Sequence record: OQ689735.1
Strand: one strand, 5' to 3'
Source: Escherichia phage 4E10
DNA length: 64,000 nucleotides
The notes under the pieces were generated by a model. The model ran no database searches and was not told the origin of the DNA. It saw only the letters and a list, made by a program, of their open reading frames with translations. How positions within the stretch are numbered: position 1 is the stretch's first letter; each line of letters opens with the position of its first letter. A program made the translations under genes and the position numbers. Positions 36,144 through 37,164 of the stretch are shown here, piece by piece.

Positions 36144-36219
36144 TGGTCGAGGCAGTAGGGATCGAACCTACGACCTAGGACTTAGAAGGTCCTTGCTCTT
36201 CCTTCTGAGCTATGCCCCG
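36144..36219 (-). tRNA. tRNA-Arg (anticodon TCT)
   Basis: Hand-folded cloverleaf: 7-bp acceptor, D-stem GCTC/GAGC, anticodon stem AGGAC/GTCCT, loop CTTCTAA, T-loop TTCGATC, CCA encoded. Confidence 0.8.
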
Positions 36220-36223
36220 TAAT

Positions 36224-36299
36224 TGGGGTGACCGATGGGAGTCGAACCCATGACTACGAGAATCACAATCTCGAGTTCTACCAACTGAACTACGGCCAC
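36224..36299 (-). tRNA. tRNA-His (anticodon GTG); no encoded G-1
   Basis: Perfect D, anticodon (CGAGA/TCTCG) and T stems; loop TTGTGAT; discriminator C73; residue -1 is U rather than G. Confidence 0.65.
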
Positions 36300-36412
36300 A
36301 TTAATACCTACTCCAACAATCAAGATGTCTTCACACGAAATTAAGAGAAGAGTGATCAGTTCAACCCTATAATCGCGTCAAGTAGATATTAATGTGACAG
36401 TTGTCACAAATT

Positions 36413-36487
36413 TGGCGGACGTGATAGGATTCGAACCTATAACCAATCGCTTAACAGGCGATCGCTCTGCCATTGAGCTACACATCC
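36413..36487 (-). tRNA. tRNA-Asn (anticodon GTT)
   Basis: Clean cloverleaf: anticodon stem ATCGC/GCGAT, loop CTGTTAA, T-loop TTCGAAT, discriminator G, CCA encoded. Confidence 0.75.
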
Positions 36488-36491
36488 AAAT

Positions 36492-36578
36492 TGGTGGGGA
36501 GTGATGGAGTCGAACCACCCGAGTCGCAATGACAATGAATTTACAGTCCACACCGCTACCTCTACGGGATAACTCCCC
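36492..36578 (-). tRNA. tRNA-Tyr (anticodon GTA), long variable arm
   Basis: 87 nt; acceptor GGGGAGT/ACTCCCC; loop CTGTAAA; anticodon stem has two G-U pairs; variable-arm stem GTC/GAC. Confidence 0.6.
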
Positions 36579-36591
36579 TTAATTCTTAATT

Positions 36592-36666
36592 TGGTGGCCC
36601 TGGGTGGAATTGAACCACCATCTGGCGATTATGAGTCGCTTGCTTGAACCTTCCAGCTACAGGGCC
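36592..36666 (-). tRNA. tRNA with CAT anticodon (Ile-lysidine type by T4 analogy, or elongator Met)
   Basis: Acceptor GGCCCTG/CAGGGCC, loop CTCATAA, T-arm GGTGG-TTCAATT-CCACC; sits where T4 has tRNA-Ile. Confidence 0.7.
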
Positions 36667-36667
36667 T

Positions 36668-36743
36668 TGGTGCTGATTGACGGAATCGAACCGCCGACCT
36701 TCTCATTACAAGTGAGTTGCTCTACCTACTGAGCTAAATCAGC
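36668..36743 (-). tRNA. tRNA-Thr (anticodon TGT)
   Basis: Cloverleaf with loop CTTGTAA, T-loop TTCGATT, CCA encoded. Confidence 0.8.
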
Positions 36744-36748
36744 AAAAC

Positions 36749-36838
36749 TGGCGGAGGCGATAGGATTTGAACCTATGAGTCGCCGGAGCGACTGCCGGTT
36801 TTCAAGACCGGTGCATTAAACCACTCTGCCACGCCTCC
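36749..36838 (-). tRNA. tRNA-Ser (anticodon TGA), long variable arm
   Basis: 90 nt, GGAGGCGTGGCAGAGTGG...CCGGT-CTTGAAA-ACCGG; matches recalled T4 tRNA-Ser. Confidence 0.85.
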
Positions 36839-36840
36839 AG

Positions 36841-36914
36841 TCTCCATACAAGGATTTGAACCTTGGACCTCCTGATCCCAAATCAGGCGCTCTACCAAAC
36901 TGAGCTACACGGAG
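36841..36914 (-). tRNA. tRNA-Pro (anticodon TGG); 3' CCA not encoded
   Basis: Loop TTTGGGA; acceptor CTCCGTG/TATGGAG; only 2 nt separate it from tRNA-Ser, consistent with the known T4 Pro-Ser dimeric precursor. Confidence 0.8.
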
Positions 36915-36924
36915 TAAATTAAAT

Positions 36925-36998
36925 TGGAGCGGATAATGAGAATCGAACTCACATCATCAGATTGGAAGTCTGAGGTAATACCATTATACGATATCCGC
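36925..36998 (-). tRNA. tRNA-Gly (anticodon TCC)
   Basis: Loop CTTCCAA with stem TCAGA/TCTGA; T-loop TTCGATT; CCA encoded. Confidence 0.8.
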
Positions 36999-37003
36999 AA
37001 ATT

Positions 37004-37090
37004 TGGTGCGAGAAGTGGGACTCGAACCCACAAGGAAATCATTCCGCAGCATTTTAAGTGCTGTGCCTTTACCAATTTGACCATTCTCGC
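37004..37090 (-). tRNA. tRNA-Leu (anticodon TAA), long variable arm
   Basis: GCGAGAATGGTCAAATTGGTAAAGGCACAGCACTTAAAATGCTG...; matches recalled T4 tRNA-Leu. Confidence 0.85.
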
Positions 37091-37091
37091 G

Positions 37092-37164
37092 CTGGGAATA
37101 AAGGACTCGAACCTTTGCATCCTGGAATCAAAATCCAGTGCCTTACCAACTTGGCTAATTCCCA
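37092..37164 (-). tRNA. tRNA-Gln (anticodon TTG); 3' CCA not encoded
   Basis: Loop TTTTGAT with stem CTGGA/TCCAG; U1-A72; abuts tRNA-Leu with a 1-nt spacer (Gln-Leu dimeric precursor as in T4). Confidence 0.8.

Follow-up and report, generated by a model that had tools for sequence, protein, structure and literature searches.

The tRNA gene array of Escherichia phage 4E10 (sequence record OQ689735.1) contains a histidine tRNA (tRNA-His) that lacks the encoded guanosine at position -1 (G-1) and has U-1 in its place, together with the discriminator C73. We analyzed a 64-kilobase (kb) stretch of this genome, hereafter the window, in which eleven tRNA genes lie on the - strand between positions 36144 and 37164. 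As an array it is not novel: common T4-like coliphages share this T2-type tRNA region, which has been deposited and annotated many times. What is new is an apparently unstudied U-1 variant of tRNA-His and, preceding it, a conserved leader RNA that apparently has not been described.

G-1 has been described as a nearly universal identity element of tRNA-His. A selected family of U-1 tRNA-His genes, and an unrelated gene of the same kind in phage T5, in hosts with a canonical histidyl-tRNA synthetase (HisRS), conflict with this rule. Three outcomes are possible: E. coli tolerates a G-1-less or U-1 tRNA-His in vivo, the choice of cleavage site by ribonuclease P (RNase P) departs from the textbook, or this tRNA-His has a non-translational and perhaps anti-defence role. 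The leader, for its part, is a candidate for a new small RNA of phages, akin to the unexplained rnaC and rnaD of T4 and RNAI and RNAIII of T5. Our overall explanation, to which we assign a probability of roughly 0.6, is that the locus is a T2/T4-like mosaic array processed by host enzymes, with a U-1 tRNA-His that is cut between positions -1 and +1.

The U-1 tRNA-His

The gene reads t/GUGGCCG...CGGUCAC-C-CCA, where the slash separates position -1 from position +1. Its acceptor stem is composed of the pairs G1-C72, U2-A71, G3-C70, G4.U69, C5-G68, C6-G67 and G7-C66. The alignment with E. coli hisR is free of gaps at 80% identity, and the two genes share acceptor and T stems of the 7/5 type, the loop sizes, the GUG anticodon with its loop, C73 and CCA. 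They differ at position -1, which is G in hisR and U in the window, and at the pair 4:69, which is G-C in hisR and either G.U or A-U in the phage family. Because no gap is needed in this alignment, G-1 has been replaced and not displaced. A different register, with G36299 serving as G-1, was rejected since it requires U+1 to pair with C72 and breaks the U8/A14 spacing; no alternative register gives a G-1:C73 pair. The initial annotation had read C73 with U at -1, and the sequence, the ARAGORN drawing and the alignment of homologues all confirm that reading.

Homologues were collected from Citrobacter phage Merlin (Moonvirus), Klebsiella phages Roth16 and Roth20, a PG7-like contig, Proteus phage ABTNLPp2 (Gelderlandvirus), Erwinia phage IT22 (Roskildevirus), Kosakonia phage 305 (Kanagawavirus), Serratia phage LC53 (Winklervirus), Providencia phage PSTRCR_121 (Gualtarvirus), Klebsiella phage KB57 and Cronobacter phage CR3 (both Vequintavirinae), Mycobacterium phage BeanWater (Bixzunavirus) and several IMG/VR contigs. 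Among the 12 distinct sequences T-1, C72 and C73 are invariant, as are the anticodon loop, the T-loop and CCA. The acceptor stem is almost invariant, and position 69 is always U, as G4.U69 or A4-U69. The cloverleaf is paired in 100% of cells, with double changes at 10 of its 21 pairs; none of 500 shuffles matches these values, and slid controls have at most 51% of cells paired. Copies at least 95% identical to the tRNA-His occur in about 300 phage records. This tRNA-His is a real tRNA under selection, and not a relic, because it is fully paired, with covarying pairs, across the 12 homologues.

Phage T5 (NC_005859) also has a tRNA-His with T-1, C73 and an encoded CCA. Its D arm is different and it belongs to a separate sequence family. 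The GenBank record annotates this gene as 78 nucleotides (nt) from T-1, which shows that its authors were aware of T at -1, and carries the note 'effective amber suppressor' for the form in which the anticodon has been replaced. T is found at -1 in Aeromonas phages AsFcp_1 and Aes012 (Angelvirus, Tulanevirus) as well, and U-1 is present in every cultured enterobacterial, Aeromonas and Mycobacterium phage examined. As a background, IMG/VR was scanned with a generic pattern of the tRNA-His anticodon and T-arm, which returned 74 distinct tRNA-His(GTG) genes. Position -1 is G in 65 of them, T in 6, C in 2 and A in 1; the corresponding counts at loci with at least three tRNAs are 40, 6, 2 and 1. 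G-1 is the norm even for viral tRNA-His and U-1 is a recurrent minority. The U-1-type trait may have arisen several times. With G-1 also present in E. coli hisR, the earlier claim that its absence is unusual holds. The unrelated IMG/VR loci L025, L035, L095, L053 and L110 have T or C at -1 with C73, and at L035 and L095 the gene reads taggt/GTGAC...CACCCC.

The tRNA-His of the window does not fit any of the described classes, being neither of the G-1:C73, the alpha-proteobacterial or the 8/4 type nor an obvious Thg1 substrate. Alpha-proteobacterial tRNA-His likewise has no encoded G-1, but it has A73 (or U73), U72 and a co-evolved HisRS that reads the anticodon (PMC3064791); this type is ruled out by the invariant C73 and C72. 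The 8/4-type tRNA-His of alpha-proteobacterial phages also lacks an encoded G-1 (PMC5389517), and is ruled out by the 7/5 structure and by C73 instead of A73. In contrast to the alpha-proteobacterial type, the gene described here combines C73, C72 and a 7/5 structure with a host whose HisRS is of the G-1 type. A literature search found no discussion of U-1 in phage tRNA-His; the T5 tRNA papers of the 1980s fell outside its scope and an earlier description is possible.

A structured leader RNA upstream of tRNA-His

The tRNA-Asn and tRNA-His genes are separated by 113 nt, a gap that is long for the array and conserved across genera. In the window this spacer folds better than its shuffles (RNAfold, z = -2.95). 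A closing helix forms between positions -13 to -1 of the pre-tRNA-His and the nucleotides that come right after the CCA(A) of the preceding tRNA or after a GTCAC motif. In 13 distinct sequences this helix has 96.4% of cells paired and both-side changes in 7 of 13 pairs, values for which the 5' arm was picked by best complementarity, a choice that favours pairing; the position of the arm is constant in all sequences. None of 500 shuffles equals the observed values and slid controls do not exceed 58% paired. U-1 is itself paired with an A of the leader helix in 12 of the 13 sequences. The interior of the leader ranges from 4 to 81 nt, and its longer versions contain a covarying hairpin of 4 base pairs (bp) with the loop UC(A/U)UGAU (RNAalifold).

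A covariance model built for the leader, R1, scores 93-98 bits in the sense orientation in the training sequences and their near-duplicates. On the window it gives 94 bits sense and 20 bits antisense, a difference that is weak evidence for the strand since the model was trained on the sense orientation. R1 also finds an independent copy in Merlin, located directly after tRNA-Asn with no tRNA following. This copy suggests that the element may be a small RNA gene in its own right and more than a leader. There are many G.U pairs on the sense strand, which argues for a structure at the level of RNA rather than DNA, and an inverted repeat acting in the DNA (e.g. a recombination site) is less likely. 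A promoter inside the spacer was also considered and rejected: scanning of 36300-36412 for sigma-70 promoters gave none on the - strand and a single hit on the + strand (36401-36430). The total number of sites in the sigma-70 scan equals the shuffle expectation. No T4 middle or late promoter motif was seen by eye in the spacer.

The arrangement is reminiscent of T5 (NC_005859 30206-30644; 10207-10645 of the extracted locus L147), where rnaI, ending in CCA, is followed after 4 nt by rnaIII, T-1 and tRNA-His. The T5 rnaIII is 106 nt long with a terminal helix of 12-14 bp, and this layout matches that of the spacer and tRNA-His in the window. The T5 record lists rnaI and rnaIII as 'stable RNA with unknown functions', whereas the spacer in the window is a candidate RNA. 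Homology of the spacer to rnaIII was rejected, as a search of the T5 locus with R1 (default filters) gave nothing at E<=1; what the two have in common is the layout only.

A perfect palindrome, GTGACAACTGTCAC, lies immediately upstream of the leader. It may, speculatively, be the fossil of a tRNA with a deleted interior. In PG7-like phages and in those of Proteus and Erwinia, the leader element is preceded by TGTCAC alone. Folding of the precursor predicts that the GUCAC just ahead of the leader also pairs with nucleotides G1-C5 of tRNA-His, which would extend the helix across the RNase P site.

Maturation and charging of the tRNA-His

The tRNA array of T4 is transcribed as precursors that are cut by host RNase P and 3'-processing enzymes; some of these are dimeric (Gln-Leu, Pro-Ser and Thr-Ile), and tRNAs without CCA are completed by the host CCA-adding enzyme. 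By analogy with T4, the - strand array in the window would be transcribed as one or a few precursors that include the downstream open reading frame (ORF) and the homologues of rnaD and rnaC. Host RNase P, RNase E, 3' exonucleases and the CCA-adding enzyme would finish the array, with the last of these needed for Gln and Pro. Because U-1 cannot pair with C73, and because U(-1)/G(+1) next to G+1-C72 is the usual canonical context of RNase P, a cut of the pre-tRNA-His between -1 and +1 is favoured. The product would have a 7-bp acceptor stem without G-1. The leader helix would end at the cut site, and cleavage would set free a small RNA of about 94 nt that is similar to the stable RNAIII of T5. 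Without G-1 the tRNA-His would be a poor but usable substrate of HisRS, and high expression would offset the penalty. Yeast lives without G-1 if tRNA-His and HisRS are both overproduced (PMC3064791). That cleavage between -1 and +1 gives a G-1-less tRNA-His that is charged inefficiently but sufficiently is, in our estimate, an even chance.

Several points weigh against this explanation. The loss of G-1 lowers kcat/Km with E. coli HisRS by more than 100-fold (PMC3064791), a penalty that makes a G-1-less tRNA a doubtful source of His-tRNA. The predicted leader helix sequesters G1-C5 across the RNase P site and could hinder or redirect the enzyme. The T5 record draws the mature tRNA-His with U-1 retained, which contradicts a cut at +1. 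Codon and amino-acid use was counted in the 67 ORFs of the window, and His accounts for only 1.7% of the residues, below Asn and Tyr; a simple supply role is therefore weak. The anticodon loops of the phage His, Asn and Tyr tRNAs, which we take to be the same as those of E. coli, would offer no escape from nucleases that recognize the loop only.

It is possible, if rather doubtful, that RNase P instead cuts between -2 and -1 and that the mature tRNA-His keeps U-1 opposite C73 with charging moderately impaired. Retention of U-1 would place the 5'-phosphate where HisRS needs it; the base of G-1 mainly positions the 5'-monophosphate, recognition of G-1 in T. thermophilus is largely non-specific, and the HisRS of A. 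pernix can accept A-1 or C-1 (PMC9976931). The T5 record agrees with such a product, as its 78-nt tRNA-His begins at T-1, its rnaIII ends at -2 and, according to its annotation, the tRNA suppresses amber codons effectively in E. coli once its anticodon is changed, but the origin of the 78-nt annotation could not be traced. The strict invariance of U-1 across unrelated leaders would also be sensible if U-1 were part of the mature tRNA. However, U-1 is paired with the leader A in nearly all sequences, it stands beside G+1-C72 in what is generally a canonical RNase P context, and T is found at -1 in 6 of the 11 genes of the cluster. Moreover, the shifted cut of bacterial RNase P is attributed to the G-1:C73 pair (PMC3064791), a pair that U-1 and C73 cannot make.

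Other accounts of the missing G-1 fare worse. A Thg1-like 3'-5' polymerase of the phage or host could add G-1 after transcription, templated by C73, as in some archaea. We find this barely credible. E. coli is not known to have a Thg1, and the U-1 type spans the Straboviridae, Vequintavirinae, Demerecviridae and Bixzunavirus, which are diverse in their gene sets. Although C73 suits archaeal-type Thg1-like proteins as a template for G-1, and such proteins have homologues in some viruses (PMC3245924), reports of Thg1 in phages are sporadic and confined to a few jumbo phages (PMC7824862). Decay of a gene carried along in a mobile cassette, with the missing G-1 marking a loss of function, could be suspected from the 192-nt insertion that carries the gene, which is absent in T2, T4 and T6, and from the possible tRNA fossil that adjoins it at 36394-36407. 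The pairing and the 10 covarying pairs of the 12 sequences, in hosts as distant as Mycobacterium, the Rfam score of 65 bits, the invariant anticodon loop, T-loop, C73 and CCA, and the hundreds of near-identical copies speak otherwise; the covariation effectively refutes decay, and we give it next to no weight. Finally, the tRNA-His could be a decoy or sponge for a host factor, or a poorly charged regulatory tRNA, and not mainly a substrate of translation. The low use of His and the absence of the main HisRS identity element are in keeping with this. Moreover, His, Tyr and Asn make up three of the four GUN-anticodon (queuosine) tRNAs that are cut by colicin E5-type ribonucleases; colicin E5 cleaves tRNA-Tyr, -His, -Asn and -Asp (PMC1635277), and related phages carry Asp besides Tyr, Asn and His. 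We consider a decoy or regulatory role quite unlikely. No defence system that targets tRNA-His is known to us or turned up in literature searches; the strict conservation of the acceptor stem, C73, anticodon and CCA is what one expects of a tRNA that is aminoacylated and put to use; and the T5 counterpart is annotated as a working suppressor.

A more general proposition, improbable in our view, is that virulent phages of the Straboviridae, Vequintavirinae, T5-like and Bixzunavirus groups, infecting enterobacteria, Aeromonas and mycobacteria, systematically encode an adaptive G-1-less tRNA-His with C73, often with a folded leader of its own whose end coincides with the RNase P site. If true, the G-1-less or U-1 end might escape or titrate a host factor that recognizes tRNA-His through G-1:C73, or else these tRNAs would be charged by a route that breaks the accepted identity rule of E. 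coli. The leader would then be a new class of small stable phage RNA controlling the formation of 5' ends.

The array is a mosaic of T4-type and T2-type segments

A region of 1.16 kb covering the array is 99.6% identical to Escherichia phage JLBYU22 (Tequatrovirus sf22). In 334 phage records at least 80% of the region is covered, and the same eleven tRNAs are annotated in most of them. Judged by these matches, the phage is a Tequatrovirus and its cluster the T2-type, eleven-gene form of the T4-like tRNA region. This eleven-gene cluster was already known, as hundreds of deposited Tequatrovirus genomes match it. In the JLBYU22 record (OK272484, L002 3315-3391) the gene at the position of Asn is labelled tRNA-His(gtg); ARAGORN finds one His gene, and the second His label looks like an annotation error. 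In the relatives SH7, A2 and ECP2301 the array is annotated only as 'hypothetical protein'.

In T4 (NC_000866, ~70.9-72.5 kb) the order is Gln, Leu, Gly, Pro, Ser, Thr, Ile, segB, Arg, rnaD and rnaC. The T4 annotation confirms two statements of the initial annotation, that the genes follow the T4 order and that eight of the eleven tRNAs, all but Tyr, Asn and His, are found in T4. The array occupies the same site in T4, between the e.8 side and trna.2/trna.3/trna.4/ipI/57B, on the same strand and in the same order. By blastn, positions 36647-37632 of the window are 96% identical to T4 and positions 35500-35777 are 97.8% identical to T4 rnaD/rnaC; the stretch between 35777 and approximately 36647 has no counterpart in T4. 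The Leu, Gly and Pro tRNAs are identical to those of T4, Thr is nearly so, and the Gln-Leu and Pro-Ser junctions lack CCA in both phages. The tRNA-Ser is identical up to its 3' end, where the window has CCA at 36749-36751 and T4 has GTAA (L001 ~3616-3619), so that this phage would be less reliant than T4 on host CCA addition for tRNA-Ser. The tRNA-Gln differs in its anticodon arm, which is CUGGA-UUUUGAU-UCCAG in the window and UAGCA-CUUUGAC-UGCUA in T4, the remainder being identical. Changes of this kind in the anticodon arm have been discussed for evasion of tRNA nucleases. The T4 tRNA-Ile resembles the CAT-anticodon tRNA of the window in its 5' third only, with a break in homology at ~36647, and the T4 tRNA-Arg is of another type that is only distantly similar. 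Relative to T4, the window lacks segB and has in addition Tyr, Asn, His, the structured spacer and an ORF of 116 amino acids (aa).

The genes of T2 (MH751506) are Gln, Leu, Gly, Pro, Ser, the trna.1 ORF, 'Met' (CAT), Tyr, Asn, Arg and the 116-aa ORF. The CAT tRNA, Tyr and Asn are identical in T2 and the window, Arg and the start of the 116-aa ORF are nearly so, and segB is found in neither. Unlike the window, T2 has no tRNA-Thr; its trna.1 ORF separates Ser from the CAT tRNA, and its Asn adjoins Arg. It lacks a cassette of 192 nt, made up of the spacer and tRNA-His, that is inserted in the window between Asn-CCAAA and TTACG-Arg. Both junctions of the insertion carry CCAA(A)TT, a motif that recurs after many tRNAs of the array. 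The same cassette follows tRNA-Gln in Tevenvirinae of Klebsiella, Enterobacter, Citrobacter, Proteus, Erwinia and Serratia. The block with the CAT tRNA, Tyr, Asn and Arg was described from T2L in 2008 in the SegB study of Brok-Volchanskaya et al., in which the preferred cleavage site of SegB (27 bp) lies inside the T2L tRNA-Asn (PMC2330249). A phage without segB would be expected to lose the Ile2-Tyr-Asn-(His)-Arg block when co-infecting with T4.

T6 has Gln, Leu, Gly, Thr, 'Met', Tyr, segB and Arg. Compared with the tRNA-Tyr/segB anti-Septu locus of T6, the window has a near-identical Tyr but no segB, and therefore no SegB-driven amplification. Taken together, the alignments point to a mosaic locus of a T4-type Gln-Leu-Gly-Pro-Ser-Thr block (~96% identical to T4), a T2-type block and the 192-nt cassette. 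The T2-type block takes the place of the 3' part of tRNA-Ile, segB and the tRNA-Arg of T4.

Roles of the tRNAs

The share of A-ending codons within their families in the window ORFs is 18% for ATA, 26% for AGA, 39% for TTA, 38% for GGA, 37% for CCA, 29% for TCA, 30% for ACA and 73% for CAA. The eight T4-type tRNAs fit the classical role of codon supply for frequent A-ending phage codons. The anticodons of the Tyr, Asn and His tRNAs (and of Thr) are those of the corresponding host tRNAs. Because a single anticodon is shared with the host, codon bias cannot explain Tyr, Asn and His, and this explanation was ruled out. With Asn at 6.2% and Tyr at 4.6% of residues, amino-acid use supports an extra demand for these two and not for His.

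The tRNA-Tyr of T6 and T5 counters Septu and retron-Eco7 (PMC13096335, PMC11555353), and the tRNA-Asn and tRNA-Thr of T5 counter PARIS (PMC12409363). By analogy, Tyr, Asn and Thr most likely replace tRNAs that are cut by host defences, which is the best-supported role for them.

Identification of the tRNA genes

ARAGORN finds the same eleven tRNAs, with the same order and anticodons, that had initially been folded by hand. In the direction of transcription these are Gln (ttg), Leu (taa), Gly (tcc), Pro (tgg), Ser (tga), Thr (tgt), the cat species, Tyr (gta), Asn (gtt), His (gtg) and Arg (tct); their coordinates are listed in Table 1. The Rfam tRNA family RF00005, with a gathering score of 29 bits, accepts ten of the eleven at 59-74 bits (Asn 74.1, Gln 67.4, His 65.1). 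CCA is encoded in 9 of the 11 genes. It is absent from Gln and Pro, which had been described as lying 1-2 nt from the next tRNA, and both junctions can be read directly: Gln ends in ...CCCAG (discriminator G at 37092) with a gap of 1 nt (C, 37091) before G1 of Leu, and Pro ends in ...GGAGA (discriminator A at 36841) with a gap of 2 nt (CU) before G1 of Ser. A single A separates the CCA of Thr from the CAT tRNA, a spacing that the initial annotation did not mention.

Covariance scoring had been proposed as a check on His, Asn and Tyr; the first two pass it and Tyr falls below the threshold. RF00005 does not report the tRNA-Tyr, and the best match in the tRNA clan is tRNA-Sec at 29.9 bits, under the cut-off of 47 bits for that family. 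The low score is due to a mismatched D stem, G.U pairs and a long variable arm: the ARAGORN drawing has a C.C mismatch and a G.U pair in the D stem and two G.U pairs in the anticodon stem. The gene matches the tRNA-Tyr of T2 at 87 of 87 positions and that of T6 at 86 of 87. The T6 tRNA-Tyr has been seen on northern blots, and its overexpression or gene amplification rescues T6 from Septu, which cuts the host tRNA-Tyr in the variable loop; T4, without a tRNA-Tyr gene, cannot escape (PMC13096335). Near-identity to a tRNA detected as RNA overrides the covariance score, which is therefore no evidence against the gene. By analogy with T6, the phage tRNA-Tyr is expected to be expressed and to offset cleavage of the host tRNA-Tyr.

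The E. coli genes closest to the CAT-anticodon tRNA are annotated as tRNA-Ile of the ileX type, which bears out the earlier assignment of this species to Ile. The two presumably have in common the anticodon stem-loop GCGAC-UCAUAAU-CGC and the pairs C4-G69 and C5-G68. On sequence, Ile is a better reading than the 'Met' label given by ARAGORN and GenBank.

Table 1. Features of the tRNA region of phage 4E10 and copies of the leader element
Feature	Position	Strand	Remarks
tRNA-Gln (UUG)	37091..37164	-	no CCA; ARAGORN and Rfam; as in T4 except compensated changes in the anticodon stem/loop
tRNA-Leu (UAA)	37004..37090	-	CCA encoded; ARAGORN and Rfam; identical to T4
tRNA-Gly (UCC)	36925..36998	-	CCA encoded; ARAGORN and Rfam; identical to T4
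tRNA-Pro (UGG)	36840..36914	-	no CCA; ARAGORN and Rfam; identical to T4
tRNA-Ser (UGA)	36749..36838	-	CCA encoded; ARAGORN and Rfam; GTAA instead in T4
tRNA-Thr (UGU)	36668..36743	-	CCA encoded; ARAGORN and Rfam
CAT-anticodon tRNA, Ile2 (lysidine) type	36592..36666	-	ARAGORN and Rfam; identical to T2 'tRNA-Met'
tRNA-Tyr (GUA), class II	36492..36578	-	long variable arm, weak D stem; ARAGORN; identity to T2/T6
tRNA-Asn (GUU)	36413..36487	-	ARAGORN and Rfam (74.1 bits); identical to T2 tRNA-Asn
Palindrome GTGACAACTGTCAC	36394..36407	-	perfect; arms like the 5' and 3' acceptor strands of the tRNA-His family
Spacer/leader RNA, ~94 nt	36300..36393	-	closing helix of 13-14 bp and 4-bp hairpin with 7-nt loop
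tRNA-His (GUG)	36224..36299	-	T-1 at 36300, C73, CCA encoded; ARAGORN and Rfam (65.1 bits)
tRNA-Arg (UCU)	36144..36219	-	T2-type, distant from T4 tRNA-Arg; ARAGORN and Rfam
116-aa ORF, function unknown	35777..36127	-	phrog_3355, E = 3.4e-54; directly 3' of tRNA-Arg
rnaD (species 2 stable RNA) homologue	35663..35777	-	115/116 identical to nt 4-119 of T4 rnaD
rnaC (species 1 stable RNA) homologue	35518..35656	-	136/139 identical to T4 rnaC
Leader element copies, ~94-107 nt	L123 1495-1600, L124 2413-2507, L125 2414-2507, L126 2402-2508, L128 2401-2507		between a tRNA 3' end and tRNA-His

Downstream ORF and stable RNAs

The 116-aa ORF is present in T2, where it is annotated as 'similar to RB69ORF150c', and is not found at the corresponding place in T4. 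An Rfam search of the spacer and of the rnaC and rnaD homologues gave no family besides tRNAs and sub-threshold noise. In T4 rnaD and rnaC directly follow tRNA-Arg, whereas in the window they follow the 116-aa ORF. A terminator scan places a strong terminator-like hairpin at 35444-35467 on the - strand, after the rnaC homologue.

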